Part shown: positions 10,048 to 64,000 of the stretch, piece after piece
Layout of the letters: the number at the start of each line of letters is the position of its first letter
How positions within the stretch are numbered: the stretch's first letter is position 1
NCBI GenBank assembly: GCA_963643175.1
Contig: CAVIJF010000003.1
Location: forward strand, 9,649-73,648
Source: a bacterium
Lineage (GTDB): Bacteria > Bacillota > Clostridia > Oscillospirales > CAG-272
Direction: 5' to 3'
DNA: 64,000 nt
Translations under genes and position numbers: made by a program
Notes under the pieces: generated by a model
Database searches by the model: none
What the model saw: the letters and a program-made list of their open reading frames with translations, nothing else
What the model was told of the DNA's origin: nothing

Positions 10048-10082
10048 TGCTTTTTCCTCCCTCGGCGGTAAACGGCAACCGC

Positions 10083-11351
10083 TTACCGCACCTGACCGTT
10101 TCCGGTGATGATGTACTTGTAGGTGGTCAGCTCGCAAAGCCCCATGGGTCCGCGGGCATGCAGTTTCTGCGTGGAGATGCCCATCTCACAGCCGAGCCCG
10201 AATTCGCCTCCGTCGGTGAAGCGGGTGGAGACGTTGACGTAAACGGCGGCACTGTCCACGGCGGCGGTAAAGCGGCGGGCGGCGGCGTCATCGGACGTCA
10301 CGATGCACTCGCTGTGCCCGGTGGAGTGTTGCGCGATGTGTGCGATGGCGTCCTCCAACGAATCCACCACGCGCACCGCCAGAATGTAATCCAGAAATTC
10401 CGTGTCGAAATCCCGCTCGCCGGCAGGGGTTCCCGGAATGATTGCGGCGGCGGCGCTGTCCAGCCGCAGTTCGACCGGTACCTCGCCCCGCGCCGCCCGC
10501 TCGTCCACGACAGCCGCCCGGAGACGGGGCAGGAATGCGGCAGCCGCCGCGCGGTGCACCAGACAGACTTCCGCCGCATTGCAGACCGACGGGCGGGAGG
10601 TCTTGGCGTTGACCATGATGCGCACCGCCATATCCGGATCGGCGGCTTTGTCCACGTACACATGGCAGATACCGGTTCCGGTCTGGATACAGGGCACCGT
10701 TGCGTTTTCCACGCAGGCGCGGATCAGCCCTGCGCCGCCGCGCGGAATCAGCAGATCGACCAGTCCGTCTGCCGTCATCAGCTCGGTCGCGCTCGCCCGG
10801 CTGGTGTCCTCCAGCAGGTTGATGCAGTCCGGCGAAACGCCCGGAACCGCCGCCTGCGCAATGCCCGCTTTGAGCGCCGCCATGACTGCGGAACAGGTGG
10901 CGTGCGCCTCCTTGCCACAGCGTAGGACGCAGGCGTTCCCGCTCCGGACTGCCAGCGCCACCGCATCGGAGGTCACGTTGGGGCGGCTTTCGTAAATGAT
11001 GGCAATCAGACCGAACGGCACCCGCACCTTGCGGATTACCATTCCGTTCGGGCGCGTTACCTCCGAGAGCACCGCGCCGACCGGGTCGGGCAGATATGCC
11101 ACATCCCGCACGCCCTGCGCCATGCCGGCAATGCGCTTGTCCGTCAGCAGAAGTCTGTCTGCCATGACGGGCGGAATGACCCCGGCGGACGCTTCCATGT
11201 CGCGTGCGTTGGCGGCGAGGATGTCCTCCCCGTGCGCCAGCAGGCTGTCTGCCATGCAGAGCAGGAGACGCTGCTTGTCCTCCTGTCCGACCGACGCCAG
11301 CACCGCTGCCGCCGCCTTGGTTCTGACCAGTATTTCATGCGTGGTCTGCAT
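10083..11351 (-). CDS. proA: Glutamate-5-semialdehyde dehydrogenase (gamma-glutamyl phosphate reductase)
   Basis: ALDH-like protein of 422 aa with a catalytic Cys context (RPSVCNAAE). It lies between proB and proC. Confidence 0.92.
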
Positions 11352-11353
11352 TC

Positions 11354-12136
11354 TTACACCTCCCGCATCCGTTTGCCGGACAGAAATTTCGTGCCGACCG
11401 GACGCCCCTCCGCAATATCGTAGAGCAGGAGCGGGTTCTGTCCGTTGGCAATCACCATATCCACGCCGGCGTCGCCCGCAATCTGCGCCGCCCGCAGTTT
11501 CGTCACCATGCCGCCGGTGCCCAGCGCGGAGCCTTTTCCGCCTGCCAGCGACAGAATATGCCCGTCCAGCTTCTCCACGACCGGAATCAGCCGCGCCTGC
11601 GGATTGATGTGCGGGTCGGCGTCGTACAAGCCGTCAATGTCCGAGAGCAGAACCAGCAGATCGGCGCCCACGCTGGCTGCCACCGTCGCGGACAGCGTGT
11701 CGTTGTCCCCGATGCCCAGCTCCTCGGTGGATACCGTGTCGTTTTCATTGATGATGGGCAGGACGCGGAACGTAAGCAGCCGCTCCAGCGTGTTGTGGAA
11801 GTTCTCCTTGCGCACCGGGTCGCCGATGTCCGGCGCGGTAATCAGGAGCTGTGCCACTGTATGGTTGTACTCGGCGAACAGCTTGTCGTAAATATACATC
11901 AGCTCGCACTGCCCGACGGCTGCTGCTGCCTGCTTGGTTGGGGCATCCGTGGGACGCGCACCGAGGTTCAGCTTGCCGACGCCCATGGCGATGGCGCCGG
12001 AGGACACCAGAATGATTTCATGCCCGGCGTTTTTCAGGTCGCTGATGACGCGGCACAGATCCGCCACGCGGCGGATATTGGTGCGCCCGGTGGAGTGGGT
12101 CAGGGTGGAGGTTCCGATTTTAATGACGATTTTCAT
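11354..12136 (-). CDS. proB: Glutamate 5-kinase (short form, no PUA domain)
   Basis: Amino-acid-kinase fold: [28 protein letters not shown]. It abuts proA with a 2-nt gap. Confidence 0.92.
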
Positions 12137-12188
12137 GTCTTTTTCCGATTCCTGTATTCTTTATGTAGATGGATGCTGTCGCCGCCGG

Positions 12189-12242
12189 CTTAAGACTTCA
12201 CCGCGCAATTCCGATGGTGCAATTGTGTGGTGAAGCCTTAAG
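12189..12242 (-). terminator. Long stem-loop at the 3' end of the DUF624 gene, with no clear U-tract
   Basis: The minus strand reads CTTAAGGCTTCACC...GGTGAAGTCTTAAG, a 14-bp stem with one mismatch. It overlaps the stop codon and precedes proB. Confidence 0.35.
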
Positions 12243-13197
12243 GCTCAGCGGGGGTTTCCTGCGGCTTCACCGGGTCTATCATGTACTTTTTGATGACCGG
12301 CCAGACCGCGTAGGTGTACATGAACGCCGACAGCGCGGGGACGATGAGGAGGGGAATGGCGATGATGCCGTATATCCGCATCGGGATGCACACGGCAATC
12401 AGTCCCGCGCACAGTCCCAGCAGGACGACGATTCCCAGAATCGCCATCAGGTTGCGCTTGATGCCCAGTGCCGTGAAGATCAGCGCGTTCTTGAGTATCT
12501 TGCGTATCTTCATGTCGAATGTCACCAGCATGACATAGATGTAGAAGCGCATCACGATCCAGATGATGAACAGTGCCACAATCATGACGTACATAAAGTT
12601 GGTGAAGCCCGATGGCTCCGCGTAGTAGAAGTACTGGAAGTCAAAGGAGAGCGCGAAGAGGATGAGGCAGTCCCAGAGCCCTAAGAAAAACCCCTGCTTC
12701 AGGTTGCGGCGGATGGCGTAGAAGTAATCCGACAGGATGAATACGCCCTCCCCCTTGACTAGATTCCGCAGGATGTAGGCGGATCCGACCTTCTGCCAGC
12801 CGTAGGTGACAACCTGAAAGACCGCCAACCCGGCGATAATCCACCAGATGGGCGTATTGTAGGCGTGTACGCGGAAAAGACCGGAGAACAGACTCAGCAG
12901 CGTATTGCCGGTCGCCGTCGGTGCGGCGGTTTGCGCACCCAGCAGGGCAGGGTACAGCGCAAAGTACTGGCTGTCCGCCTTGGGTCCCGTGAAGTATGCA
13001 AAGAAGCACAGCAGGAGCGGCAGGAACTGCACAAGCAGCACGAGGTTCACCGAAACCAGCTTCCAGAACTTGCGCCCTAACAGCTTGAAGAAATACCCCA
13101 ATGTGGGGGTCGTGTCCTCCCCCTTTTCGACGCCGCGCCCGTCCCGCATGGGATTGAGCAGGCGCAGGGGACCTTTACCTTTTTTTGTGGAACTCAT
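12238..13197 (-). CDS. DUF624 / YesL-family integral membrane protein
   Basis: The N-terminus GVEKGEDTTPTLGYFFKLLGRKFWKLVSVNLVLLVQFLPLLL is typical of the family, followed by multiple TM helices. Confidence 0.7.
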   Translation of the reverse strand: MSSTKKGKGPLRLLNPMRDGRGVEKGEDTTPTLGYFFKLLGRKFWKLVSVNLVLLVQFLPLLLCFFAYFTGPKADSQYFALYPALLGAQTAAPTATGNTLLSLFSGLFRVHAYNTPIWWIIAGLAVFQVVTYGWQKVGSAYILRNLVKGEGVFILSDYFYAIRRNLKQGFFLGLWDCLILFALSFDFQYFYYAEPSGFTNFMYVMIVALFIIWIVMRFYIYVMLVTFDMKIRKILKNALIFTALGIKRNLMAILGIVVLLGLCAGLIAVCIPMRIYGIIAIPLLIVPALSAFMYTYAVWPVIKKYMIDPVKPQETPAEP

Positions 13198-26799: not shown

Positions 26800-28197
26800 T
26801 CAGCGCCGGGTCAGATCCGTGTAGGGGCGTTCCCGCTCGATGCACTTGTAACCGGGGCGCATAATCTTGCCGGAGGACAGGATTTCCTCCATGCGGTGTG
26901 CGCACCAGCCCGCTGTGCGGGCAATGGTGAAGAGCGGCGTGTACATTTCGGTCGGGATGCCCAGCATCCGGTATACCAGACCGGAATACAGATCGACATT
27001 GGCACACATATCGTGGTGATTGCCCTTGTACGTGCTGAACACCTCCGGCGTCAGGCGCTCGATGGATTCAAGCAGTGCGAAGTCCTCGCCGTAGCCTTTC
27101 TCCTCCGCAAGCCGGCGTGCGTAGCGCTTGAGCATGACGGCGCGGGGGTCGGACTTGGTGTAGACCGCGTGCCCCATGCCGTAAATCAGACCGGAGCCGT
27201 CGTTTGCCTCGCCCTTCAGGATGCGCAGCAGGAATTCGGACAGCTCGTCGTCGCTGTGCGGGTTGCGGACATTCGCCTTTACGCAGTCGAACATTTCCTG
27301 TACCTTGATGTTTGCGCCGCCGTGCAGGGGACCCTTCAGCGCACCGATGCCCGCCGCGATGGCGGAATAGGTGTCGGTGCCGGTGGAGGACAGCACGCGC
27401 GTGGCGAAGGTGGATGCATTACCGCCGCCGTGCTCGGCGTGGATGATGAGGCACAGATCCAACAGGTGCGCCTCCTCCGGCGTGTAGCTCTTGTCGGGGC
27501 GCAGGACGCGCAGGAAGTTTTCCGCCGTGGACAGTCCGTCACGCGGGTTGTGCAGGGTAAGCGACTTGTTGAAAAAGGCGTTGCGGTACACGGAGTATGC
27601 CTGCCCGGCAATGACGGGCAGCCGTGCCACCAGCTCCATGGACTGCCGCATCATGTTCTCCAGCGACGTGTCATCCGGGTTGTCGTCGTAGGCGTATAGC
27701 GACAGAACCGCGACTTCCAGCTTGTTCATGATGGAGCGCGACGGTGCTTTCATGATGATATCCTCGGTAAACCGGGGCGGCAGATGCCGAAGCATCGCCA
27801 GCACATCGGTGAACTCCTGCAGCTCCAGCCGCGAGGGCAGATGCCCCATGAACAGCAGGAAGGCGCATTCCTCAAAGCCGAACCGTCCGTCCGCAACACA
27901 GCCTTCCAGCAGGTCGCGCATATTGTAGCCGCGGTACTCCAGCACGCCGTCAACCGGGCACTTTTCGCCCTCGTTGACCACGTAGCCGTGCGCATTGCCG
28001 ATGCGGGTCACACCCGCGGTCACGCCGGTTCCGTCCGGCTCGCGCAGTCCGCGCTTGACCTTGTAGCTGTCGAAAGCGGAAGCGGGGATGGTATAGGCGG
28101 TGCGGCATGAGTCCAGCAGATTGCGGAACTCGCCCTCGGTTCTCTCCTCCGCCTCCGGCGGCAGCTGGCAGTATTTCAAAGTAGATTCCAATGACAT
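26800..28197 (-). CDS. Citrate synthase (citrate/2-methylcitrate synthase family)
   Basis: GMGHAVYTKSDPRA and LIIHAEHGGGNASTF signatures. The ATG at 28197 follows GGGAGGAGG. Confidence 0.88.
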   Translation of the reverse strand: MSLESTLKYCQLPPEAEERTEGEFRNLLDSCRTAYTIPASAFDSYKVKRGLREPDGTGVTAGVTRIGNAHGYVVNEGEKCPVDGVLEYRGYNMRDLLEGCVADGRFGFEECAFLLFMGHLPSRLELQEFTDVLAMLRHLPPRFTEDIIMKAPSRSIMNKLEVAVLSLYAYDDNPDDTSLENMMRQSMELVARLPVIAGQAYSVYRNAFFNKSLTLHNPRDGLSTAENFLRVLRPDKSYTPEEAHLLDLCLIIHAEHGGGNASTFATRVLSSTGTDTYSAIAAGIGALKGPLHGGANIKVQEMFDCVKANVRNPHSDDELSEFLLRILKGEANDGSGLIYGMGHAVYTKSDPRAVMLKRYARRLAEEKGYGEDFALLESIERLTPEVFSTYKGNHHDMCANVDLYSGLVYRMLGIPTEMYTPLFTIARTAGWCAHRMEEILSSGKIMRPGYKCIERERPYTDLTRR

Positions 28198-28264
28198 GAA
28201 TGTGACCTCCTCCCATCGCACGCCCGGTGCGTGCGGCGACCGCATAGCGGCTGTATAGATATAC

Positions 28265-28293
28265 AGTATAACACACATTGACACGATTTGCAA
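28265..28293 (-). promoter_or_regulatory. Sigma-70-type promoter of citrate synthase
   Basis: The minus strand reads TTGCAA-17 nt-TATACT with an extended -10 TG. Confidence 0.5.
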
Positions 28294-32208: not shown

Positions 32209-33645
32209 ATGTTTCTGTACGACCTTGCCGGCGCACCGGGACGCTCGCTGTACGACCGGCTGACCGGCTGTATCCGCCGGGATATTCTGGAGGGGCGCCT
32301 GCCCGCCGGGAGCCGCCTGCCCTCCAAGCGCCGTGCCGCCGCCGCATGGGGCATCAGCGTGGTTACGGTCATGGCGGCGTATGATCAGCTGCTCGCCGAG
32401 GGCTACCTTGTGTCCGAACAGCGTCGGGGCTACTTTGTCGCGCAGGTGGAGCAGTGGGAGATGCATCCGGCGGTGTCTGTCCCGCCACCGCCGGTCGCCG
32501 CCCCCCCGATGTCCGGGCAGATCGGGCAGTCTGGGGACGGCGTGATTGACCTGATTCAGAACCGCGTGCCGCCCGACCTGTTCCCGCTGTCGGTGTGGAA
32601 CCGCCTGTCGCGGCGGGTCTGGCGGGAGGAGGGGCAGACCCTGCTCCGGCGGACGGACTACAACGGTCTGCCTGCCCTGCGTGCCGCCATCCGGGACAGT
32701 CTGTGCGAGAGCCGAGGCATCCGCGCCGGGGCGGAGAATATTCTGGTCAGCGCCGGAAACGAGCAGCTTTACGCAACGCTGCTGACTTTTCTGGGGCGGG
32801 AGAACGTGTTCGGCGTGGAGGATCCCGGCTACCCGCTGATTGCCCGCCTGTACGGACAGAACGGCGCGCGTGTGATTCCGCTGCCGCTGGATGCGGCGGG
32901 GGTCATGCCGGACGCGCTGGAACCGGCGGGCGTCCGCGTCCTGCACATCTCGCCCAACCACCATTTCCCGACCGGTATCGTCATGCCGGTCGGGCGTCGG
33001 CAGGAACTGCTGGCGTGGCTGGCGGGCGCCCCTGACCGATACATCATCGAAGATGACTACGACAGCGAATTCCGCATGGAGGGGCGCCCCATTCCCTCCC
33101 TGCAGAGCATGGACGGCACGGGGCGCGTGATATATGTCAACACGTTTTCCAAGACCGTTGCGCCGTCGCTGCGTATCGGGTATGCCGTCCTGCCGCCGGA
33201 GGTCAGCCGGGCGTACCGGGAACGGCTGGGTTTCCTCTCCTGCCCGGTGTCGGTGCCGGAGCAGTACATTCTGGCGGCATTCATGGCGGACGGTTCGCTG
33301 GCGCGGCACATCAGCCGGATGCGTACCCGGTGCCGCGCCGTGCGGGACGCACTGCTTGCCGCGCTTGCCGCCTCGCCGCTGGCGGAGCGCTACACCGTGT
33401 CCGCAGCAGAGGGCGGACTGCATTTCCTGCTGCACCTGCACACGGCACTGCCGGATACCGCCCTGTGCGCGGCGCTGGCGGCGCAGGGTGTGCGGGTGCG
33501 GTCGCTGCGCGACTATTTCGCACAGCCCCCGGCAGCGGATACGCATACGCTGGTCATCAGCTACGCCGGGCTGTCCGCCGACCGCGCACAGGAGCTGGTC
33601 CACCGGCTGGACGCCGTCACGGCTGTCACGGAAAACCAACCGTGA
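32209..33645 (+). CDS. MocR/PdxR-family transcriptional regulator (GntR wHTH fused to fold-type-I aminotransferase-like domain)
   Basis: N-terminal GntR HTH (LPSKRRAAAAWGISVVTVMAAYDQLLAEGYL) and an AAT-like domain with a PLP-lysine context (TFSKTVAPSLRIGY). Confidence 0.88.
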   Translation: MFLYDLAGAPGRSLYDRLTGCIRRDILEGRLPAGSRLPSKRRAAAAWGISVVTVMAAYDQLLAEGYLVSEQRRGYFVAQVEQWEMHPAVSVPPPPVAAPPMSGQIGQSGDGVIDLIQNRVPPDLFPLSVWNRLSRRVWREEGQTLLRRTDYNGLPALRAAIRDSLCESRGIRAGAENILVSAGNEQLYATLLTFLGRENVFGVEDPGYPLIARLYGQNGARVIPLPLDAAGVMPDALEPAGVRVLHISPNHHFPTGIVMPVGRRQELLAWLAGAPDRYIIEDDYDSEFRMEGRPIPSLQSMDGTGRVIYVNTFSKTVAPSLRIGYAVLPPEVSRAYRERLGFLSCPVSVPEQYILAAFMADGSLARHISRMRTRCRAVRDALLAALAASPLAERYTVSAAEGGLHFLLHLHTALPDTALCAALAAQGVRVRSLRDYFAQPPAADTHTLVISYAGLSADRAQELVHRLDAVTAVTENQP

Positions 33646-33673: not shown

Positions 33674-33702
33674 TTGCAATTTGACAGGGGATGGTGTAAA
33701 AT
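33674..33702 (+). promoter_or_regulatory. Sigma-70-type promoter of PEP carboxykinase
   Basis: CCCTTGCAA-17 nt-TAAAAT. Confidence 0.45.
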
Positions 33703-33803
33703 ACAAACTGGGTAATGAAGGGCGTTTGACCGGAAATGCATTTCCGGAACATCTGCGCCGCTTTGCCTGCCAAATGAGACACCGAACAAGGAGGAATTTC
33801 AGA

Positions 33804-35600
33804 ATGAATCCTACAAACAATCAACACGTGCTGAGCTGGCTGAACGAAATGGCAGCCATGACCAAGCCGGACAACATCGTATGGATCGACGGAAGCGAGG
33901 AGCAGGCGAACGCGCTCCGCAACGAGGCGCTTGCCAGCGGTGAACTGATCCGGCTCAATCAGGAAAAGATGCCGGGCTGCTACCTGCACCGTACCACGTG
34001 GGATGACGTGGCGCGCGTGGAGGGTCGCACCTTCATCTGCACCAAGACCAAGGAGGACGCAGGCAACATCAACAACTGGATGGATCCTGCCGAGTGCCGC
34101 GCCAAGCTGACCAGGCTGTATACCGGATGCATGAAGGGACGCACCATGTATGTTATCCCGTACTCCATGTCCATCGTCGGCTCCCCCTTCGCCAAGTACG
34201 GCATTGAGCTGACCGACTCCATTTACGTCGTGATGAACATGGAGATTATGACCCGCGTCGGCAACAACGTGCTGGAGGCGCTGGGCGATTCCCACGACTT
34301 CATCAAGGGTCTGCACTCCAAGGCAACGCTGGATGCCGAGAACCGCTATATCGTCCACTTCCCGGAGGACGACACCATCTGGTCCATCAACTCCAACTAC
34401 GGCGGCAACGTCCTGCTGGGCAAGAAGTGCTTTGCCCTGCGTATTGCCTCCTACCTCGGACGCAAGGAAGGCTGGATGGCGGAGCATATGCTGATTCTGG
34501 GCGTCACCTACCCGGACGGCACCAAGAAGTATGTGACCGCCGCTTTCCCGTCTGCCTGCGGCAAGACCAACCTTGCCATGCTGATTCCGCCTGAGGTATT
34601 CCAGAAGCAGGGCTACAAGGTCGAGACGGTCGGCGACGATATCGCATGGCTGCGCGTCGGCAGTGACGGTCGCCTGTGGGCTGTCAACCCGGAGAACGGC
34701 TTCTTCGGCGTGGCGCCCGGCACCAACGAGAAGTCCAATCCCAACGCACTGCACACCTGCATGAAGGATACCATTTTCACCAATGTCTGCCTCAACACCG
34801 ATACCGACACGGTCTGGTGGGAGGGCCTGGACAAGAACCCGCCTGTCCACGCCATCAACTGGAAGGGTCAGCCGTGGGACTATCACACCTACGACAAAGC
34901 GGACAAGGTGAACACCTCCGGTGCGCATCCCAACAGCCGCTTTACCGCCAAGGCTACCAACTGCCCCTGCCTCAGCCCTGCTTTCTATGAGCCGAACGGC
35001 GTGCCCGTGGACGCCATTATTTTCGGCGGTCGCCGTGCCCGCACCGCGCCGCTGGTGTATCAGTCCACCTCCTGGCAGAACGGTACCTTCGTCGGCTCCA
35101 TCATGGCGTCCGAGACGACGGCTGCTGCCGCCGGTGCGGTCGGTGTCGTCCGCCGCGACCCCATGGCAATGCGTCCCTTCGTCGGCTACAACATGGGCGA
35201 CTACTGGGCACACTGGCTTGAGATGGGTCTGAAGATTCCTCATCCGCCCAAGATTTTCCATGTCAACTGGTTCCGCACCGATGACGAGGGCAACTTCATC
35301 TGGCCCGGCTTCGGCGATAACCTGCGCGTTGTGCTGTGGATTCTCGCCCGCTGTGCCGGCAAGGTTGACGCGGACATCACGCCTATCGGCTACCTGCCCA
35401 AGGCGGAGGATATCTGCATCGACGGTCTGGAGGGCGTCACGGTTGATACGATCCGCAACCTGCTGTCGGTGGATACCGCGGCATGGCTGGAGGACGTGGA
35501 GAACATCAAGGCGTTCTACGCACAGGTCGGCGACCATGTGCCGCAGGCTATGTACGACGAGCTTGCCGCTTTGGAAGCCCGCCTGAAGGCTGCCCTGTAA
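33804..35600 (+). CDS. pckG: Phosphoenolpyruvate carboxykinase (GTP)
   Basis: GTP-PEPCK signatures: FPSACGKTNLAML (kinase-1a P-loop), GDDIAWL, NWFR. RBS is AAGGAGGA. Confidence 0.92.
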   Translation: MNPTNNQHVLSWLNEMAAMTKPDNIVWIDGSEEQANALRNEALASGELIRLNQEKMPGCYLHRTTWDDVARVEGRTFICTKTKEDAGNINNWMDPAECRAKLTRLYTGCMKGRTMYVIPYSMSIVGSPFAKYGIELTDSIYVVMNMEIMTRVGNNVLEALGDSHDFIKGLHSKATLDAENRYIVHFPEDDTIWSINSNYGGNVLLGKKCFALRIASYLGRKEGWMAEHMLILGVTYPDGTKKYVTAAFPSACGKTNLAMLIPPEVFQKQGYKVETVGDDIAWLRVGSDGRLWAVNPENGFFGVAPGTNEKSNPNALHTCMKDTIFTNVCLNTDTDTVWWEGLDKNPPVHAINWKGQPWDYHTYDKADKVNTSGAHPNSRFTAKATNCPCLSPAFYEPNGVPVDAIIFGGRRARTAPLVYQSTSWQNGTFVGSIMASETTAAAAGAVGVVRRDPMAMRPFVGYNMGDYWAHWLEMGLKIPHPPKIFHVNWFRTDDEGNFIWPGFGDNLRVVLWILARCAGKVDADITPIGYLPKAEDICIDGLEGVTVDTIRNLLSVDTAAWLEDVENIKAFYAQVGDHVPQAMYDELAALEARLKAAL

Positions 35601-43837: not shown

Positions 43838-44854
43838 ATGCAACAGAAAAGAATCATTGTGGACTGCATGGGCGGTGACCGCGCGCCCGGGGAGATGCTG
43901 GCAGGCACCGTTGCCGCCAAAGCCGCGCTGGGCGGGGAATACCTGCTGGTCGGCGTCCGGTCGGAGATGGAAGCCGCTGCCCGCGCCCGCGGCATTGACC
44001 TGTCCGCGTTTGCCCTGCGCGATGCGGAATCTGTCGTCGGGATGGAGGACGACCCCATGTGCGTCCTGCACGCCAAAAAGAACTCGTCCATGTCGGTCGC
44101 ACTGCGCGCCTTGCGGGACGGGGAGGGGGACGCCGTGGTCAGCACCGGCAACACCGGTGCGCTGTTCACCGGCGCCAGCCTTATTGTCCGGCGGATGCAG
44201 GGCGTACACCGCGCCGCCATTGCCACGGTGCTGGCATTCGAGAAGCCTATCCTGCTGCTGGACTCCGGCGCCAACGTGACGGTACAGCCGGATTTCCTGC
44301 CGCAGTTTGCCGTCATGGGCTCGGCGTACATGAAGGGACTGTTCGGTCTGGAGGCACCCCGCGTCGGTCTGCTGAACAACGGCGCCGAGGCGTGCAAGGG
44401 CACCCCCACGCAGACGGAGGCGTACCGCCTGCTGTCCGCCATGCCCGGCATTCATTTTGTCGGGAATGTGGAACCGAACGCTCTGCCGTTCAATGTCTGC
44501 GATGTCGCGGTGGCGGACGGCTTCACGGGCAATATATGCCTGAAGGCGTATGAGGGCGTGAGCCGGTTCATCCTGCACGGGCTGAAGGATATATTCATGA
44601 CCAACGCGCTGACAAAGCTGTCCGCGCTGGGTATAAAGAAGCCGCTGGCGCAGTTCCGCAAGAAGGTGGATACCGCCGAGTACGGCGGCAGTCCCATTCT
44701 GGGACTGTGCAAGCCAGTCATCAAGGCGCACGGTTCCAGCGACGCGCGCGCCTTTGCCAACGCCATCCGGCAGGCGACCCGCCTTTGCGAGTCCGGCGTG
44801 CTGGACGGACTGGAGGCGGAGATAGCCGCCGGTGTCGCGGCGGACGGGGAATAG
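43838..44854 (+). CDS. plsX: Phosphate acyltransferase PlsX
   Basis: IIVDCMGGDRAP N-terminus and the motif PILGLCKPVIKAHGSSD. Confidence 0.92.
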   Translation: MQQKRIIVDCMGGDRAPGEMLAGTVAAKAALGGEYLLVGVRSEMEAAARARGIDLSAFALRDAESVVGMEDDPMCVLHAKKNSSMSVALRALRDGEGDAVVSTGNTGALFTGASLIVRRMQGVHRAAIATVLAFEKPILLLDSGANVTVQPDFLPQFAVMGSAYMKGLFGLEAPRVGLLNNGAEACKGTPTQTEAYRLLSAMPGIHFVGNVEPNALPFNVCDVAVADGFTGNICLKAYEGVSRFILHGLKDIFMTNALTKLSALGIKKPLAQFRKKVDTAEYGGSPILGLCKPVIKAHGSSDARAFANAIRQATRLCESGVLDGLEAEIAAGVAADGE

Positions 44855-44896
44855 ACGGTAAAAACAACGGATGTACGGAAAGGAAGGGAATCAGCC

Positions 44897-45646
44897 ATGG
44901 GGCATGAAAGGGAACGCACTGTACCGATAGACGCAGACTGTCTTTCGGCATTGGAGAGCCGCATCGGCTACCGCTTCCGCGACCGGGGACTGCTGTGCCG
45001 GGCGCTGACGCACTCCTCCTATTCCAACGAAACGGGACAGCGCAACCATCACCTTCTGTGCAACGAGCGGCTGGAATTTCTGGGCGATTCGGTGCTGTCG
45101 CTGGTGGTCAGCGAGTATCTGTTCACGACATACCGCGAGCTGCCGGAGGGCGATCTGACCTGCCTGCGCAAGGATGTGGTCTGTGCGGACGCACTGGCGC
45201 GGTACGCCCGGCAGATTGACCTCGGCAGCTGTCTGCTGCTGGGCATAGGCGAGGAAAAGACCGGCGGCAGGGACAAGGTGAACATTCTGGCGGATGCCTT
45301 TGAGGCACTGCTGGCTGCCATGTTTGAGGACGCGGGGCGCGGCGGGGATGCCAAGGACGTCATAGCCGCGTTTCTGCTCCCTTTCGTGCGGCGCGATCTG
45401 CGGGAACTGGAGAGCCGGGGCGGGGACGGAGACTACAAGACCCCCCTGCAGCAGCTGATTCAGCAGACCGAGGGGGATGTGCTGGAGTACGTCCTGATCC
45501 GCGAGGAAGGACCCGACCATATGAAGACCTTCGAGGTGGAGGCACGGCTGAACTCCAATGTCATCGGACGCGGGGTGGGTCGTTCCAAGCGCAAGGCGGA
45601 GCAGGCGGCGGCGCGGGACGCGCTGAACCTGTTCGGAGTAAAGTAA
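44897..45646 (+). CDS. rnc: Ribonuclease III
   Basis: RNase III signature NERLEFLGDSVL plus a C-terminal dsRBD (GRSKRKAEQAAARDAL). Confidence 0.93.
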   Translation: MGHERERTVPIDADCLSALESRIGYRFRDRGLLCRALTHSSYSNETGQRNHHLLCNERLEFLGDSVLSLVVSEYLFTTYRELPEGDLTCLRKDVVCADALARYARQIDLGSCLLLGIGEEKTGGRDKVNILADAFEALLAAMFEDAGRGGDAKDVIAAFLLPFVRRDLRELESRGGDGDYKTPLQQLIQQTEGDVLEYVLIREEGPDHMKTFEVEARLNSNVIGRGVGRSKRKAEQAAARDALNLFGVK

Positions 45647-57745: not shown

Positions 57746-57774
57746 TTGACGGCTGTTCGCAATGGTGTTATAAT
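57746..57774 (+). promoter_or_regulatory. Sigma-70-type promoter of the biotin-decarboxylase cluster
   Basis: TTGACG-17 nt-TATAAT with an extended -10 TG. A second GGTATAAT lies 10 nt downstream. Confidence 0.55.
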
Positions 57775-57920
57775 TTGGTATAATCGGGGAAGGATGGGTC
57801 TTTTTGGAAGGCGCATTTTGCCCAGAAAAAGTACGTAAATCGGGTCGGCGGAAGCCGGAAATGAGCATCTGCGGGGCAGACGCCAGCCGGGTCAGCCGGT
57901 CAGGAAAGGAACTACGGTTT

Positions 57921-59276
57921 ATGGATATGGAAAAGAAGGACACCAAGGGTCGTGCGGCGATTGTTTCGCTGTTTGACGAGGGTACCTTTGTCGAAATGGG
58001 TGCGTTTGTCCGCAGACAGGGCGAGACGTATGACGCAGTGCTCTGCGGCTACGGCGCGGTCGGCGGCAAGCTGACCTTTGCCTTCGCGCAGGACGCGGAC
58101 CGGCAGAAGGGCGCCTTTGATGCGGTCGGAGCCGCCAAGATTGCCCGGCTGTACGAGCAGGCGGTGCGCACGGGTGCACCGGTCGTGGGCGTGCTGAACA
58201 GCGCCGGTGCCGTCGTGACCGACGGGGCGGGTGCCCTGTCCGCTTACGGAAAGCTGATGAAGTGCGTCTCGGACGCCTCCGGCATCATTCCGCAGATTGC
58301 GCTGGTCGAGGGCGTCTGCGGCGGCATGGCTGCCGTTGCTGCCGGGCTGTTTGACCTTACCGTTACGGTGAAGGATCAGTCCGAATTGTTTGTCAATCCG
58401 CCCTTCAATGTCGGCGCGGAGACGGGGAAGACCGCGTATGCCGCCGCGAACGGACTGTCCGCGCTGACGGCTGAATCGCAGGATGCCGCCGTTGCCGCCG
58501 TCCGCACGCTGATCGGTCTGCTGCCCCGCAACAACGCGGACAGCGCCGATACCGATCCTGCCGATGCGCCTGACCGCCCGGTCAGTCCCGCCGGTCTGAC
58601 CGGCGCCGCGCTGGTTGCCGAGCTTGCCGATGCGGGCAGCTTCACCGAGCTGTATGCCGCCTGCGGGCAGGAGCTGACCGTCGGTCTTTGCCGCATGGGC
58701 GGCATGACGGTGGGCGTGGTCGCCGGAAACGGCGCCGCCGATGCGGGCAGGCTGACTGCCTCCGGCGCTGTCAAGGCGGCGCGGCTGGTGAATTTCTGCG
58801 ACGCGTTCTCCCTGCCGGTGCTGACGCTGGCGGACAACGCCGGACTGGCGATGCGCGCCGATCCCGCCCTTGCCGGGGCGCTGGGCAAGCTGGCGTCTGC
58901 CTATGCCGGTGCAACCTGCCCGAAGGTAACAGCCGTGACCGGTAAGGCATACGGCGCTGCCTTCACTCTGCTGGGTTCGCGTGCGCTTGGTGCCGACCTG
59001 ACGCTGGCTCTGCCGGATGCGGTAGTCAGCGTGATGGATCCCGCTGCCGCCGTGGCGTTCCTGCGCAACGATGCCGTGACTGCCGGAACCTCCCGCGCGT
59101 CGGTCGAGGCGACATGGACGGCAGAGAATCAGGCGGATGCCGCCGCCGCAGGCGGGGACATCGACGATGTGATTCCCGCTGAGGAACTGCGTGCCCGCCT
59201 GTGTGCCGCGTTCTATATGCTCTCGGACAAGGCAAGCGGTACGCCTGACCGCAAGCACGGCGTGCTGCCTCTGTGA
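57921..59276 (+). CDS. Acyl-CoA carboxyltransferase-family subunit (MmdA/GcdA/12S-like), short and divergent
   Basis: Two crotonase-like halves are alignable by eye to the carboxyl transferase family (VGVVAGN...AVKAARLVNFCDAFSLPVLTLADNAG...KVTAVTGKAYGAAF...GDIDDVIPAEELR...KHGVLPL). Confidence 0.7.
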   Translation: MDMEKKDTKGRAAIVSLFDEGTFVEMGAFVRRQGETYDAVLCGYGAVGGKLTFAFAQDADRQKGAFDAVGAAKIARLYEQAVRTGAPVVGVLNSAGAVVTDGAGALSAYGKLMKCVSDASGIIPQIALVEGVCGGMAAVAAGLFDLTVTVKDQSELFVNPPFNVGAETGKTAYAAANGLSALTAESQDAAVAAVRTLIGLLPRNNADSADTDPADAPDRPVSPAGLTGAALVAELADAGSFTELYAACGQELTVGLCRMGGMTVGVVAGNGAADAGRLTASGAVKAARLVNFCDAFSLPVLTLADNAGLAMRADPALAGALGKLASAYAGATCPKVTAVTGKAYGAAFTLLGSRALGADLTLALPDAVVSVMDPAAAVAFLRNDAVTAGTSRASVEATWTAENQADAAAAGGDIDDVIPAEELRARLCAAFYMLSDKASGTPDRKHGVLPL

Positions 59277-59290
59277 GAGGAGCGTTTCCT

Positions 59291-59719
59291 ATGAATATGT
59301 TTACCCTTCAGACCCTTGCCGCCGCAGCGGCGCAGTCCGGGGAAGATCTGGGCGGCTTCATGTCGTCCGAACGGCTGGAACTTGCCGGTCAGGTCGTGCT
59401 GATCGGTATGGGCATGGTGTTTTCCGTGCTGGCACTGCTGTGGGGCGTGCTTGCCCTTTTCGGAAAACTCATGACGTCCGGAAAAGCCGGAAAGGCTAAG
59501 GACGGGGAGCCTGCCCCTGCCACGGAAGAAGTCCCGGCTGCGGAACCTGCCGTACAGCCTGAGGAAGCACACGCCGCGGAGACTGCGGAGGAGGACGACG
59601 AGGAACTGGTTGCCATACTCACCGCCGCCGTGGCTGCCGCCATTGCGTCGGACGAGGAGCTGTCCTCCCGCTTTGCAAGCGGGTTCCGCGTGGTTTCCTT
59701 CAGGAAAGCCGGGCACTGA
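59291..59719 (+). CDS. OadG/MmdD-like small membrane subunit of Na+-translocating decarboxylase
   Basis: A single N-terminal TM helix (VVLIGMGMVFSVLALLWGVLALF) followed by an Ala/Glu/Pro-rich tail. RBS is GAGAGGAG. Confidence 0.65.
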   Translation: MNMFTLQTLAAAAAQSGEDLGGFMSSERLELAGQVVLIGMGMVFSVLALLWGVLALFGKLMTSGKAGKAKDGEPAPATEEVPAAEPAVQPEEAHAAETAEEDDEELVAILTAAVAAAIASDEELSSRFASGFRVVSFRKAGH

Positions 59720-59772
59720 GAGCCGGGCAAAGAATCTGCCTAATTTATGCTGATGTGAAAGGATATACTGCC

Positions 59773-60144
59773 ATGAAAAAGAGATTTATCGTTACACTGA
59801 ACGGCAACGCCTATGACCTGACCGTCGAGGAGGCGGATGCCTCCGCCGCCGTGACTGCTGCCGCCCCCGCCGCGCCTGCCGCACCCAAGGCGGCTCCCGC
59901 TCCGGCACCCAAGGCTGCCGCTGCCGCCGGCTCCGTCGCGGTCAAGGCTCCCCTGCAGGGAACCGTCATGAAGGTCAACGTCAAGCCGGGTGACACCGTG
60001 AAGAGAGGCGCCGCCGTGGCTGTCATTGAGGCGCTCAAGATGGAGAACGACGTGCCCGCACCGCAGGACGGCGTGGTGGCAAGCGTTGAGGTCAAGAGCG
60101 GCGATTCCGTCAAGACGGATCAGGTTCTTCTGACCCTGAAGTAA
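59773..60144 (+). CDS. Biotin carboxyl carrier protein (123 aa, 1.3S/MmdC-like)
   Basis: Ala/Pro linker then a biotinyl domain with EALKMEN (biotinyl-lysine motif). Confidence 0.85.
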   Translation: MKKRFIVTLNGNAYDLTVEEADASAAVTAAAPAAPAAPKAAPAPAPKAAAAAGSVAVKAPLQGTVMKVNVKPGDTVKRGAAVAVIEALKMENDVPAPQDGVVASVEVKSGDSVKTDQVLLTLK

Positions 60145-60218
60145 GGCGACGCGCTCCGAGACTTGTCCGGGCATAGCCGGTGTTCCGCCCCGGACGGAAT
60201 GAAAGGAAAACCACCATT

Positions 60219-61439
60219 ATGCTTGATAGTTTGTTGAATTTTCTGACCAAAACGGGTGTCTGGAAGCTGCTCTTCAAGAGCGGCGACCAGTTTACTTTAG
60301 CGGGAAGCGGCTGGGCATTCAACACCGCCTGCTGGCAGACGCTGGTCATGCTCCTGATTGTAGGGGTGCTGGTCTACCTTGCCATCAAACGCGGCTTTGA
60401 GCCGCTGCTGCTCCTGCCCATCGCCATCGGGATGCTGCTGACCAATCTGCCCGGCGCAGGCATTTTCCATCTGGATTACTTTATCGCGGATGAGATTGAC
60501 TACGCCTTTATCCTCCACAACGGCGGATTTCTGGATATGCTGTACCTCGGCGTCAAGCTCGGCGTGTACCCCTGCCTGATTTTCATCGGCATCGGTGCCA
60601 TGACCGACTTCTCCCCGCTGATTGCAAATCCCAAGAGCCTGCTGATCGGCGCGGGCGCACAGCTCGGCGTGTTCGTTGCGTTTGCGGTTGCCCTGCTGTC
60701 CGGACAGTTCAGCCCGGCGGAGGCAATGTCCATCGGTATCATCGGCGGCGCGGACGGACCGACCGCCATTCTGGTGACCAAGACGCTGGCGCCGGCTCTG
60801 CTGGGTGCAATCGCCATTGCCGCGTACAGCTACATGGCACTGATTCCCATGATTCAGCCGCCCTTCATGAGACTGCTGACAACCCGGAAGGAGCGCACCA
60901 TCCGCATGGATGCCCTGCGCCCGGTTTCCATGCTGGAAAAGATTCTGTTTCCCATCGTTGTGACTGCCATTGTCGGGCTTATCGTGCCGGATGCGCTGGT
61001 GCTGGTCGGCTGCCTGATGTTCGGGAACCTGCTCAATGTCTGCGGCGTGACCGACCGTCTGTCCAAGACCGCACAGAACGAACTGATGAATATCGTCACC
61101 ATCTTCCTCGGTATTTCGGTGGGTGCGACCGCAAGCGCGGAGAACTTCCTGCGTCCGCAGACGCTGCTCATCATCGCGCTGGGACTGGTTGCCTTCTCCA
61201 TTTCCACCTGCGGCGGACTGCTGACCGCGAAGGTTATGAATGTCGTCTGCGGCGGCACCATCAACCCGCTTATCGGCTCTGCCGGCGTGTCTGCCGTGCC
61301 GATGGCGGCGCGCGTTTCCCAGCTTGAGGGGCAGAAGTACGACCCCACCAACTTCCTGCTTATGCACGCCATGGGTCCCAATGTGGCGGGCGTCATCGGG
61401 TCGGCGGTTGCCGCCGGGGTGTTCCTTGCATGGGTATAA
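60219..61439 (+). CDS. Na+-translocating decarboxylase beta subunit (OadB/MmdB/GcdB family)
   Basis: About 10 TM helices. Family-typical motifs include FEPLLLLPIAIGMLLTNLP, GIIGGADGPT and GSAGVSAVPMAARV. Confidence 0.88.
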   Translation: MLDSLLNFLTKTGVWKLLFKSGDQFTLAGSGWAFNTACWQTLVMLLIVGVLVYLAIKRGFEPLLLLPIAIGMLLTNLPGAGIFHLDYFIADEIDYAFILHNGGFLDMLYLGVKLGVYPCLIFIGIGAMTDFSPLIANPKSLLIGAGAQLGVFVAFAVALLSGQFSPAEAMSIGIIGGADGPTAILVTKTLAPALLGAIAIAAYSYMALIPMIQPPFMRLLTTRKERTIRMDALRPVSMLEKILFPIVVTAIVGLIVPDALVLVGCLMFGNLLNVCGVTDRLSKTAQNELMNIVTIFLGISVGATASAENFLRPQTLLIIALGLVAFSISTCGGLLTAKVMNVVCGGTINPLIGSAGVSAVPMAARVSQLEGQKYDPTNFLLMHAMGPNVAGVIGSAVAAGVFLAWV

Positions 61440-61454
61440 AAGTGAAAGGATTGT

Positions 61455-62864
61455 GTGATTGAAATGAGTCAGGTAAAGATTACCGAAACGGTTCTGCGTG
61501 ATGCGCACCAGTCGCTGATTGCCACGCGGATGACCACCGAGGAAATGCTCCCGATTCTGGAAGCCATGGACGACGTGGGATACTACTCGCTGGAGGCATG
61601 GGGCGGCGCGACGTTTGACGCCTGTATGCGCTTCCTGAACGAGGATCCGTGGGAGCGCCTGCGCAAGATCCGCGACCGCGTTAAAAAGACAAAGCTGCAG
61701 ATGCTGTTCCGCGGACAGAACATCCTCGGATACCGCCACTACGCGGATGACGTGGTGGAGTACTTCGTGCAGAAGTCCATTGCCAACGGCATTGACATCA
61801 TCCGTATCTTCGATGCGCTGAACGATCCCCGCAACCTCAAGACCGCTATCAACGCGACCATCCGGGAGGGCGGGCACGTGCAGGCGGCGTTCAGCTACAC
61901 CACCGGTCCTGTGTACACCACCGAATACTACCGCAGCTATGCCAAGCAGCTTGAGGAGATGGGCGCAAATTCCATCTGCATCAAGGATATGGCAGGTTTG
62001 CTCAAGCCGTATGAGGCATACGAACTGGTGCGCACGCTCAAGGAGAGCGTCAGCATCCCGATTCAGCTGCACACGCATTATACGTCCGGACTGGCGTCCA
62101 TGACGCTCATGAAGGCGGTCGAGGCGGGCGTGGATGTTATCGATACCGCACTGTCCCCGCTGGCAATGGGTACCTCCCAGCCGCCCACAGAGTCCATGGT
62201 TGCCGCCCTTGCCGGAACCGAGTACGACACCGGGCTTGACCTTGCCAAGCTGGACGTGCTGACCCGGTACTTCACGCCCCTGCGTGAGAAGTACCTCAAG
62301 AGCGGTCTGCTTGACCCCAAGGTGCTGAAGGTCAACGTCAACGCACTGATGTATCAGGTGCCGGGCGGAATGCTGTCCAACCTGATGTCTCAGCTCAAGC
62401 AGGCGGGCAAGGAGGATCAGCTCACCGCCGTGCTGGAGGAAGTGCCGCGCGTGCGCGCCGATGTCGGGTATCCCCCGCTGGTCACGCCCTCGTCCCAGAT
62501 TGTCGGAACGCAGGCTGTGTTCAACGTGCTGACCGGTGAGCGCTACAAGACCGTTACCAAGGAATTCAAGGACATCGTGCTGGGCAAGTACGGCAAGACG
62601 CCGGTGCCCATCAAGCCCGAGTTCGTGAAGAAAATCTGCGGGGACGCCAAGCCGATTACCTACCGCCCCGCCGACGACCTCAAGCCGGAGTTGGCGACAC
62701 TGCGTGCCGCCATGCCGCAGGGACTGATGGAGCAGGAGGAGGACGTGCTGTCCTACGCCCTGTTCGATAAGGTTGCACTCAAGTTCTTCGAGTACCGGAA
62801 GGCGCAGAAGTACGGCGTTGACGGCGAGCACGCCGATGCCGCCGCAGGAATCCATACCATCTGA
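61455..62864 (+). CDS. Oxaloacetate decarboxylase alpha / pyruvate carboxyltransferase subunit (5S-like; HMGL TIM barrel plus PYC_OADA domain, no biotinyl domain)
   Basis: ITETVLRDAHQSL...EAWGGATFD...ICIKDMAGLL...HTHYTSG. It ends without a BCCP domain. The start may instead be the ATG at 61464. Confidence 0.88.
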   Translation: MIEMSQVKITETVLRDAHQSLIATRMTTEEMLPILEAMDDVGYYSLEAWGGATFDACMRFLNEDPWERLRKIRDRVKKTKLQMLFRGQNILGYRHYADDVVEYFVQKSIANGIDIIRIFDALNDPRNLKTAINATIREGGHVQAAFSYTTGPVYTTEYYRSYAKQLEEMGANSICIKDMAGLLKPYEAYELVRTLKESVSIPIQLHTHYTSGLASMTLMKAVEAGVDVIDTALSPLAMGTSQPPTESMVAALAGTEYDTGLDLAKLDVLTRYFTPLREKYLKSGLLDPKVLKVNVNALMYQVPGGMLSNLMSQLKQAGKEDQLTAVLEEVPRVRADVGYPPLVTPSSQIVGTQAVFNVLTGERYKTVTKEFKDIVLGKYGKTPVPIKPEFVKKICGDAKPITYRPADDLKPELATLRAAMPQGLMEQEEDVLSYALFDKVALKFFEYRKAQKYGVDGEHADAAAGIHTI

Positions 62865-62885: not shown

Positions 62886-62917
62886 GCGGCTCCGCCCTCC
62901 GGACGGAGCCGCATTTT
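62886..62917 (+). terminator. Intrinsic terminator of the decarboxylase cluster
   Basis: GCGGCTCCG-ccctccgga-CGGAGCCGC followed by ATTTT. Confidence 0.6.
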
Positions 62918-62963: not shown

Positions 62964-64000
62964 CATGCCGCACGTAACCGATTATATTCAGTGGCGGGGA
63001 GATATTCCCTTTGAAAACGATCCGCTCAACGAGGTGGACAATCTGATTTTCTGCCTTTTGTCCTATGTCGAACTGGACGGCTCTGTCCCGTCCGACCCGA
63101 ACCGGTGCGTGACGCTCCGGGAGGCGGCGAAGGAGTATTTCTTCACGCACGACCCGAAGGACGAGCGCCCGCTGGGGCTTATCGTGCCGCGGGAGATTGT
63201 CGCCCTGTTCCGCCAGATGGCGGATGCGCCGCGCTACCGCGATCTGCGGCTGTGCGGCTATGTCAACGAGATATGCGAGAAAAAGCAGGTGCAGTTCTCG
63301 GCGCTGACTGTCCGCCTGCCGGACGATACGTGGTTCGCGGCGGTGCGCGGTACCGACGATACCATTGTCGGCTGGCGGGAGGACTTCAACCTGTCGTGGA
63401 TGGATGAGGTGCCGGCTCAGCGCATGACGGCGGAGTATCTGGACAGCCTGCCCCTGACGGACAAATCCCGCCTGTATGTCGGCGGGCATTCCAAGGGCGG
63501 CAATCTGGCTGTATGGGGGGCGGTTCACGCCTCACCTGCCACGCGGGACCGGATTGTCCGGGTGTTTAGCAATGACGGACCCGGCTTCTCGGACAAAATG
63601 CTGGAGTCGGAGGCATACCGCACGCTCGCCGACCGCATCGACTGTCTGGTTCCGCAGTCCTCCCTTGTCGGAATGCTGCTGTCGCATGACGACTACGACG
63701 TCATCCGCAGCAGCCAACTGGGCATTTTCCAGCACAACGGACTGTCGTGGGAGGTCATGGGAGGCTCCTTTGTCCGGGCGCATCAGCTGTCCGGGCAGGG
63801 AAGGCGCAATGACAGCGTAATCCGCGCCCGCATCGACTCCATGACCACGGAGGACAGGAAGAAGTTCACCGAGCTGTTCTTCGGCATTCTGGGGTCCACC
63901 GGCGCCCGCACGCTCACCGAGCTGAACGCCGGCTCTATCCGGAACGTCATCACCATGCTCCGCACAGTCAGTGACATGGACCGGGACACCAAGGAGATGG
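62964..64000 (+). CDS. Alpha/beta-hydrolase-like protein, DUF2974 (Mbeg1-like) family, 3' end cut by window edge
   Basis: This ORF is not in the track because it has no stop. Hand translation from the ATG at 62964 (RBS AAAGGAG) is stop-free to the window end. It has a lipase-type nucleophile elbow GGHSKGG. Confidence 0.7.

Follow-up and report, generated by a model that had tools for sequence, protein, structure and literature searches.

Introduction

Reviews of the Na+-translocating decarboxylases and of the metabolic node that links phosphoenolpyruvate (PEP), pyruvate and oxaloacetate describe the enzymes acting on oxaloacetate (Oad), methylmalonyl-CoA (Mmd), glutaconyl-CoA (Gcd) and malonate together with an enterococcal variant, the split oxaloacetate decarboxylase of Enterococcus faecalis, which consists of an OadA lacking the biotin domain, OadB, the carrier OadD and OadH. 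In enzymes of the Mmd type a small subunit joins alpha to beta, and conflicting subunit stoichiometries have been reported for the Na+-translocating decarboxylases. Here, we describe a five-gene cluster in a 64,000-nt stretch of DNA (the window) from a clostridial bacterium of the lineage CAG-272 (Oscillospirales), which encodes two proteins of different carboxyltransferase (CT) types, a biotin carrier and the membrane parts of a sodium pump. That none of the Mmd, Gcd and Oad enzymes or the propionibacterial transcarboxylase combines these parts had been stated in an earlier reading of the window from its letters alone (the sequence-only reading), and it agrees with the reviews, which give the classical types only.

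The genes of the classical oxaloacetate decarboxylase are arranged as oadGAB and those of the methylmalonyl-CoA decarboxylase of Propionigenium modestum as mmdADCB. In transcarboxylase, a 12S hexamer forms the core that carries the 5S dimers.

A candidate operon for a Na+-translocating oxaloacetate decarboxylase

Five co-directional open reading frames (ORFs) follow each other head to tail on the plus strand at 57921-62864. The first encodes a carboxyltransferase-like protein of 451 amino acids (aa), hereafter CT-like (57921-59276; Pfam Carboxyl_trans, 234 bits), followed by an OadG/MmdD-like membrane anchor (G) of 142 aa (59291-59719; Pfam OAD_gamma, 55.8 bits, cut-off 27), a free-standing biotin carboxyl carrier protein (BCCP) of 123 aa (59773-60144; Pfam Biotin_lipoyl, 68 bits), an OadB/MmdB-type carboxybiotin decarboxylase or Na+ pump (B) of 406 aa (60219-61439; OAD_beta, 507 bits) and a 5S/OadA-type carboxyltransferase (5S) of 466 aa (61464-62864; HMGL-like and PYC_OADA, as well as NF008985). 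The start codons chosen are those used in close relatives; an alternative GTG start at 61455 would extend the 5S-type protein to 469 aa. With intergenic gaps of 14, 53, 74 and 24 nt in gene order, the close spacing noted in the sequence-only reading was confirmed, and its five subunit assignments proved right at the superfamily level according to the Pfam and NCBIfam matches. Each gene is preceded by an AAAGGA-type ribosome-binding site.

Upstream of the first gene lies a sigma-70-type promoter on the plus strand (57746-57774; TTGACG-17 nt-TATAAT with a TG extension), which matches the consensus at 11 of 12 positions. Its TATAAT shows no variation in nine relatives, and the TTGAC is common to all relatives whose compared sequence reaches it. 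Downstream of the operon a simple terminator scan reported no terminator; a fold calculation yielded an intrinsic-terminator-like hairpin on the plus strand, GCGGCUCCG...CGGAGCCGC followed by UUUU (62886-62917), with a G+C-rich stem of 9 bp at 62886-62912 (-28.5 kcal/mol, z = -3.26). Both signals that had been proposed earlier, a near-consensus promoter and a terminator-like hairpin, are thus present. The gene on the 5' side, truB, is divergently oriented, and the 3' neighbour, an Mbeg1-like gene, starts at 62965 with its own ribosome-binding site beyond the hairpin. Judged by this layout, the five genes from promoter to terminator-like hairpin appear to form one operon.

The last four genes carry the features expected of a decarboxylase that acts on oxaloacetate. 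The 5S-type protein scored 776.5 bits with NF008985 ('oxaloacetate decarboxylase subunit alpha'), above the cut-off of 718 of this equivalog model, which with about 465 positions represents the form of OadA without a biotin domain. With TIGR01108 it reached 700.8 bits and missed the cut-off of 756.5 because the biotin domain is absent; family matches to the protein revealed neither an association domain nor a biotin domain, as the sequence-only reading had it for the latter. Comparison with known structures gave 508 bits to the carboxyltransferase domain of Vibrio OadA (2nx9) and 478 bits to the transcarboxylase 5S subunit (1rqb), and the metal and active-site motifs LRDAHQS, IKDMAG and LHTHYTSG are intact. 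For the pump subunit, 470 bits were obtained with TIGR01109 (cut-off 190.6) and 372 bits with Salmonella OadB (6iva), to which the segments GGADGPT, AAYSYMAL and INPLIGSAGVSAVPMAAR / GSAGVSAVPMAAR are identical. The residues for catalysis and for the Na+ site (in Klebsiella numbering, Asp203 and others) presumably lie in these segments.

The two small subunits have a layout to match. The anchor, which scored 34.2 bits with TIGR01195, just under the cut-off of 36.05, comprises an N-terminal hydrophobic helix at about residues 35-53 (the hydropathy maximum and sole helix), an Ala/Pro/Glu-rich linker and a C-terminal tail. The carrier comprises an N-terminal docking segment, an Ala/Pro linker and a biotinyl domain whose Lys89 sits in ALKM, where the motif AMKM would be usual; its top NCBIfam match is MmdC (90 bits, cut-off 200). 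As all diagnostic features are present, the last four genes make up a credible split Na+-translocating oxaloacetate decarboxylase, and we consider it very probable from the encoded proteins that the complex decarboxylates oxaloacetate and pumps Na+.

In three related loci the anchor is 315-339 aa long rather than 142 (L004, 8379-9368; L007, 8360-9307; L091, 7367-8386), presumably owing to a much longer linker.

The carboxyltransferase-like first subunit

The first subunit is far less typical of its family. It scored 250.6 bits with the methylmalonyl-CoA decarboxylase model TIGR01117 (mmdA), whose cut-off is 998.8, shares 30-34% identity with PCC beta, AccD5 and 12S, and is about 65 residues shorter than the canonical proteins of 516 aa. 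To place it, the CTs of 88 loci were aligned and a neighbour-joining tree was computed from this single alignment. The tree set a canonical clade, whose clusters have the order CT-G-BCCP-B or CT-BCCP, apart from the divergent clades, which we refer to as 'up' (holding the CT-like protein of the window), 'top', 'mid' and L032.

The two groups also differ in their association with a 5S gene. In a tblastn survey, which detected partial genes too, a 5S gene lies downstream of the CT gene at 26 of the 27 divergent-clade loci that were informative and at 2 of 21 of the canonical clade, counts that are descriptive as the loci are phylogenetically non-independent. The sole divergent exception, L010, has a shortened CT on a short contig. 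Neighbouring genes were tallied from mechanically called ORFs as the 25 most frequent Pfam families. Among 109 neighbour ORFs of 15 canonical loci we found methylmalonyl-CoA mutase (9), B12-binding (9), MeaB (7), acetyl-CoA hydrolase/transferase (7) and epimerase-type glyoxalase (5) families, which is the succinate-to-propionate pathway. The 124 neighbour ORFs of 15 5S-linked loci yielded housekeeping families only, with a highest count of 4, and mutase, B12-binding, MeaB, CoA-transferase and epimerase families were all missing from the 25 most frequent; the 64-kb window likewise holds no mutase, MeaB, epimerase or CoA-transferase gene. This linkage, together with the neighbour families, associates the divergent CTs with the 5S gene rather than with the metabolism of methylmalonyl-CoA. 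Guilt by association led no further, as the neighbours of the 15 5S-linked loci show no metabolic theme.

These data bear on the possibility that the complex is a dual-substrate sodium pump, in which methylmalonyl-CoA or another carboxy-acyl-CoA supplies carboxyl groups that the CT-like protein passes to the shared carrier and pump. The order CT-anchor-carrier-pump does match that of the canonical clusters L035, L072, L085 and L092 and that of P. modestum, and one locus, L093, combines a canonical CT with pump and 5S genes. For the window, however, the low mmdA score, the loss of half of the invariant residues (see below) and the lack of mutase, MeaB, epimerase and CoA-transferase among the frequent 5S-linked neighbours make such an enzyme quite improbable.

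The cluster of L093 (7001-12200; ENA ERZ15237644) has the order CT-G-BCCP-B-5S with a CT of 516 aa, and its protein cluster includes HIU58326.1 of Candidatus Ornithomonoglobus merdipullorum. A dual-substrate pump is a good hypothesis for this locus, which is the best candidate for a true enzyme of that kind or for a membrane-coupled transcarboxylase and looks like an evolutionary intermediate between Mmd operons and the window type.

How far the CT-like protein has departed from its relatives was gauged at 162 alignment positions whose invariance across 41 canonical CTs is 93% or more. The window protein keeps 80 of them and the other divergent-clade CTs keep 68-101; 151 are kept by the 12S-like CT beside a 5S gene at L034, and 160 each by the CTs of L092 (a Caldanaerobius Mmd-type cluster) and L093. 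The losses include three motifs. In the N-domain loop, canonical DSGGARIQEG is replaced by NSAGAVVTDG; within the 'up' clade the Arg position is occupied by Val, Lys or Asp and the Gln position is hypervariable. We take the arginine of this SGAR motif to be the active-site arginine studied in the CT domain of yeast acetyl-CoA carboxylase. The C-domain loop DVPGFLPGxxQE..GII.HGAK is variable in the window protein, with three residues deleted, and canonical RKAYGGAY reads GKAYGAAF. The description of the cluster as a 'complete transcarboxylase set' was therefore overstated, given the mmdA score, the 80 of 162 positions and the fast evolution of the protein.

This fast evolution is evident from pairwise comparisons of whole clusters. 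Among divergent five-gene clusters (n = 12, 66 pairs) CT has a mean identity of 41%, B of 64.8% and 5S of 71.1%, and in all 66 pairs CT shows the lowest identity among these three large subunits; between the window and L004, for instance, CT is 61% and both B and 5S are 86% identical. Canonical Mmd-type clusters (n = 10, 45 pairs) show the opposite, with 68.9% for CT and 61.8% for B, and CT scoring above B in 43 of the 45 pairs. For a given divergence of the pump, the CT-like protein has thus changed far more than a working MmdA, which suggests that the constraint on it is relaxed though not vanished. In the window family, mean column identity is still 64% over 21 members.

The fold, by contrast with the active site, appears to be preserved. 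An AlphaFold2 model of the CT-like protein (pLDDT 86.9, pTM 0.88) superposes on PCC beta, 12S and AccD5 with TM-scores of 0.85-0.90, and since the model is confident we conclude that the two-domain carboxyltransferase fold is predicted to be intact. In current annotation, the first gene and its relatives are labelled 'acetyl-CoA carboxylase', 'methylmalonyl-CoA carboxyltransferase', 'carboxyl transferase' or 'hypothetical protein', and at least some of these labels are probably misleading.

Proposed function of the complex

We propose that the operon encodes a membrane-bound biotin enzyme with the gene order and small subunits of Mmd (alpha-delta-gamma-beta), to which a 5S/OadA-type gene has been added. 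The 5S/OadA-type protein would move the carboxyl group of oxaloacetate onto the biotin of the 123-aa carrier, which would then swing to OadB; OadB would decarboxylate the carboxybiotin and export Na+, with the OadG-like protein anchoring the soluble parts at the membrane. The sequence-only reading had pointed to pckG (33681-35600) and citrate synthase (26800-28293, minus strand), and both are indeed in the window. Together with the GTP-dependent PEP carboxykinase encoded by pckG, the complex could convert PEP via oxaloacetate to pyruvate with a yield of GTP and a sodium gradient. The idea of such a bypass from PEP via oxaloacetate to pyruvate has been discussed for Clostridium thermocellum and its relatives.

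The CT-like protein would serve in this enzyme as an oligomeric core or adapter on which the anchor, the carrier and the 5S-type protein dock, with little or no transfer of carboxyl groups to or from acyl-CoA. Such a protein could have arisen when an Mmd operon gained a 5S gene and the catalytic constraint on its alpha subunit fell away after the switch to oxaloacetate; as docking site for the delta/gamma anchor and for the N-terminal segment of the carrier, this subunit would have remained necessary. The loss of half of the universal residues, the roughly doubled divergence, the 5S linkage and the lack of an acyl-CoA context argue that the protein is kept mainly for structure, and the CT gene is always first and never missing, which fits a role in assembly. 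The substrate of the complex, its transport of Na+, its place in metabolism and, most of all, a structural role for the CT-like protein are deduced from genes and their comparison, and the whole picture of a Na+-pumping oxaloacetate decarboxylase with a largely non-catalytic CT-like core is put forward tentatively, as it falls a little short of being probable.

Several observations weigh against a structural core. Within the window family, entropy is lower at the canonical-invariant positions (0.67 bits) than elsewhere (1.45 bits), and some replacement residues have become fixed (Arg61, for one, is present in all 24 'up' members), so that an altered but working active site would fit too. The split enzyme of E. 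faecalis manages without a CT-like subunit, and a scaffold is therefore not strictly required. In addition, several divergent lineages have pump-less clusters of the order CT-G-BCCP-5S or CT-BCCP-5S (L005/L006, L020, L021 and L032), in which, lacking a beta subunit and with a purely structural CT, carboxybiotin would have no obvious outlet unless oadB lies elsewhere. At L005/L006 (7001-10625) the CT is 57% identical to that of the window, and the cluster has neither oadB nor a gap for one; the pump seems to have been lost recently in the L005 lineage, because its nearest relatives L089 and L090 have oadB.

The same observations could speak for a branched hybrid or membrane-coupled transcarboxylase, in which the CT-like protein is active with a remodelled site and carboxybiotin either drives pumping by OadB or is used to carboxylate an acyl-CoA, most attractively acetyl-CoA to malonyl-CoA for lipid synthesis without ATP. 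The pump-less clusters, which occur in at least four divergent lineages, call for another catalytic component, the canonical sites are under above-average constraint with new residues fixed, and at least 150 representatives of 50%-identity clusters scored above 320 bits with the family profile (1.84 billion representative proteins searched), which suggests an old and stable state. In Caldicellulosiruptor bescii, an operon of CT, a hypothetical protein, BCCP and 'oxaloacetate decarboxylase' is preceded by a predicted FapR site and was de-repressed in a fapR deletion strain, and its authors regard it as a unit for malonyl-CoA biosynthesis (PMC7071700). C. thermocellum, which has a pump-less cluster, reportedly showed no detectable activity of oxaloacetate decarboxylase (PMC8303734).

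Against this stand the residues lost from the CT-like protein, which are invariant in the surveyed canonical CTs whatever their genomic context, and its evolution, which far outpaces that of its partners, whereas canonical CTs show the reverse. The 25 top neighbour families of the 15 5S-linked loci include no fab, acc or fapR family, and in the window plsX is directly followed by rnc, without fabD-fabG-acpP. A TAGTACC-type FapR operator was not found upstream in 93 loci, which is a weak negative. Moreover, the CTs of C. bescii and C. thermocellum are 56-kDa proteins that do not have a place on our tree and may be canonical: a search for them seeded with the L022 clade returned Oscillospiraceae proteins from metagenome-assembled genomes (MAGs) and then canonical 516-aa proteins only. 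As the C. bescii CT is not placed, the FapR evidence is not linked to the clade of the window. Weighing both sides, we regard a hybrid of this kind as doubtful for the window; the broader proposition that the divergent CTs are a working remodelled family, whose five-subunit complex would split carboxybiotin between Na+ export and ATP-free carboxylation, we hold to be unlikely. Of the three options that the sequence-only reading had left side by side, the non-catalytic scaffold is thus favoured for the window, whereas a dual-substrate pump or membrane-coupled transcarboxylase fits the canonical CT of L093 better.

If the oxaloacetate pump with a structural core is correct, many uncultured gut and rumen Clostridia would run the last glycolytic step via PEP carboxykinase and a Na+-pumping decarboxylase, with an ion-gradient yield that current models of these organisms leave uncounted. 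The complex would then also be a natural case of a catalytic subunit turned structural core, and it could help to explain how the beta3-gamma3 membrane module is joined to the soluble carboxyltransferase subunits. If instead the CT-like protein is active, an ATP-free carboxylation would be coupled to a pump, which would be of interest to physiologists and metabolic engineers alike; the obvious candidate for a working remodelled family is the carboxylation of acetyl-CoA to malonyl-CoA, replacing acetyl-CoA carboxylase in many anaerobic Clostridia, and an acceptor other than a CoA ester would be possible too.

Distribution and a conserved leader element

The closest genome match to the window is the Oscillospiraceae MAG chromosome CP091718.1 (1.78 Mb), in which the CT protein is 94% and the DNA of the cluster 88.6% identical. 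Three further genomes with the cluster are GCA_965332245.1, GCA_965346115.1 and GCA_965341515.1. The 90%-identity cluster of the window CT contains 635 metagenome-assembly sequences (ENA, Logan). Surveying Clostridia for the five-gene order, as had been suggested with the sequence-only reading, yielded more than 20 distinct loci from metagenomes and MAGs (L002-L004, L007-L009, L018, L023, L036, L047, L048/52, L050, L053/54, L058, L062, L063, L089-L091 and L093), and the architecture is accordingly not rare. The CT gene is first in the operon and present in every relative, down to about 35% identity; that reading had named its absence from orthologous clusters as a possible counter-argument, and no such absence was seen. 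As far as seen, the five-gene architecture is common yet confined to uncultured or little-studied Clostridia.

Overlapping the TATAAT of the promoter, the leader carries the element TATAAT-N11-GGGGnAGnAnGG followed by a T-run (57769-57797, plus strand), which was recognized from motif matches across relatives. The window holds one match, compared with 0.07 expected by chance, and among 93 loci exact matches occur solely 5' of the CT gene. They were found in L003 (6833-6861), L005 (6910-6938), L006, L008 (5194-5222), L009 (9842-9870), L010, L012, L058 (9827-9855) and L089 (5912-5940), and variants in L002, L004, L007, L023, L036 and L054. The element is kept throughout the 'up' clade, even where CT identity is only about 36%, and neither the other CT clades nor the remainder of the window has it. 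A riboswitch in the leader of about 140 nt was considered and rejected, as Rfam gave chance-level matches only (E >= 2.4) and, at the gathering threshold, reported nothing but a tRNA over the whole window; a leader peptide 5' of the CT gene was likewise discarded, as starts and reading frames vary among relatives. The element may be an operator or a 5' RNA element particular to this operon type.

A conserved promoter and leader 5' of the CT gene also speak against a mere adjacency of two systems, or a CT gene that is a decaying pseudogene without a role. The CT ORF is intact and predicted to fold well, it is first in every relative to about 35% identity, the family is strongly conserved by its mean column identity, and the gap to the next gene is only 14 nt. 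An explanation of this type is scarcely credible.

Further features of the window and of related loci

On the 3' side of the operon, an Mbeg1-like gene (PF11187) is found on the same strand in four lineages, at 62965-64000 in the window, where it runs off the end, and at 12571-13758 in L007, 10419-11597 in L008 and 11855-13078 in L091. Directly upstream of pckG and co-directional with it, the window encodes a MocR-type protein (32209-33645), in which a GntR-family regulator is combined with an aminotransferase-like domain. At 43838-45646, a gap of 42 nt separates plsX from rnc (RNase III), beyond which come smc and ftsY, and the window has neither fabD-fabG-acpP between plsX and rnc nor fapR before plsX. 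In Bacillus, the interval from plsX to rnc holds fabD-fabG-acpP. Genes for fatty-acid synthesis are either located elsewhere in the small genome or absent from it.

Among the related loci, L003 (CP091718.1) has oadB and the 5S-type gene each split into two overlapping ORFs (9391-11956), which are intact in the near-identical L008 and L009; the splits are probably indel errors of the assembly and not pseudogenes. Downstream of the operon in L008 (11660-16708) and L009 (16310-21327), genes for a cohesin-domain protein and for a protein of more than 3800 aa with peptidase S8, cohesin and dockerin domains suggest a cellulosome-like surface system in the organism. L092, of Caldanaerobius fijiensis type, is a canonical mmdADCB-type cluster without a 5S gene, which is followed at 10892-12505 by a gene resembling the S component of an energy-coupling factor (ECF) transporter, possibly for biotin, and by one for a BirA-type biotin ligase/repressor.

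Comparison with known systems

A five-gene CT-G-BCCP-B-5S enzyme was not described in the full-text literature searched, whose coverage excludes subscription journals. On the evidence of the genes, what would be new is the combination of both carboxyltransferase types with a pump, which is uncharacterised, whereas the parts and the chemistry are familiar; the large, fast-evolving, 5S-linked CT-like subfamily likewise appears to be undescribed in the searchable literature.

OadABG of Klebsiella, Vibrio and Salmonella (2nx9, 6iva/6iww) shares with the window operon the 5S/OadA-type motifs, the OadB pump and an OadG anchor with a single helix, and its two-step carboxybiotin mechanism is the one that we propose here. 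However, the alpha subunit is split in the window into a carboxyltransferase and a biotin carrier as separate proteins, a fifth, CT-like subunit is encoded by the first gene and conserved in all relatives, and the gene order is Mmd-like and not oadGAB. The context differs as well, being one of sugar fermentation with PEP carboxykinase and not a citrate-lyase cluster. The enterococcal enzyme resembles that of the window in having an OadA without a biotin domain, a separate carrier (OadD) and the OadB pump, but it lacks a CT-like subunit, has OadH instead of a typical OadG, and is encoded inside the citrate-lyase locus oadHDB-citCDEFX-oadA. Unlike the glutaconyl-CoA decarboxylases, the window has a CT-like protein that is not of the GcdA type; GcdA structures matched it weakly and in part only (about 120 residues, E = 4e-7).

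The pump-less clusters Cthe_0699-0701 and Clo1313_1523-1525 of C. thermocellum and B5X54_RS07175-07190 of C. bescii have the same order and part types as the window (CT, gamma, BCCP and 'oxaloacetate decarboxylase') minus beta. Annotation assigns them to oxaloacetate decarboxylase or to a unit for malonyl-CoA biosynthesis, with the CT found in the membrane fraction, yet they are uncharacterised; they differ from the window in that the cluster contains no OadB gene and the CT, of 56 kDa, is probably canonical.

The propionibacterial transcarboxylase (12S, 5S and 1.3S; 1on3, 1rqb) comprises the same three types of soluble part that are encoded together here, and the model of the CT-like protein reaches a TM-score of about 0.88 with 12S (1on3). 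The N-terminal segment of the carrier, FIVTLNGNAYDLTVEE, resembles what we take to be its counterpart, the N-terminus of 1.3S that glues 12S to 5S. In contrast to the window operon, which encodes both OadB and OadG, transcarboxylase is soluble and has neither, and the CT-like protein of the window is no canonical 12S, having lost the GGARIQE and PGFxPG..QE loops together with about half of the invariant residues.

The methylmalonyl-CoA decarboxylases (MmdABCD(E) of Veillonella parvula and P. modestum) have the same order of CT, anchor, carrier and pump. The top NCBIfam models are mmdA for the CT-like protein and MmdC for the carrier, and MmdD ranks second for the anchor after the general oadG_fam, although all of them lie far under the equivalog cut-offs (mmdA, 250 against 999; MmdD, 27 against 150; MmdC, 90 against 200). 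Mutase and epimerase genes adjoin the surveyed canonical Mmd-type clusters and are missing beside the window type, which differs further in its extra 5S-type gene and in a CT-like subunit that belongs to a separate clade and is not of the MmdA type.

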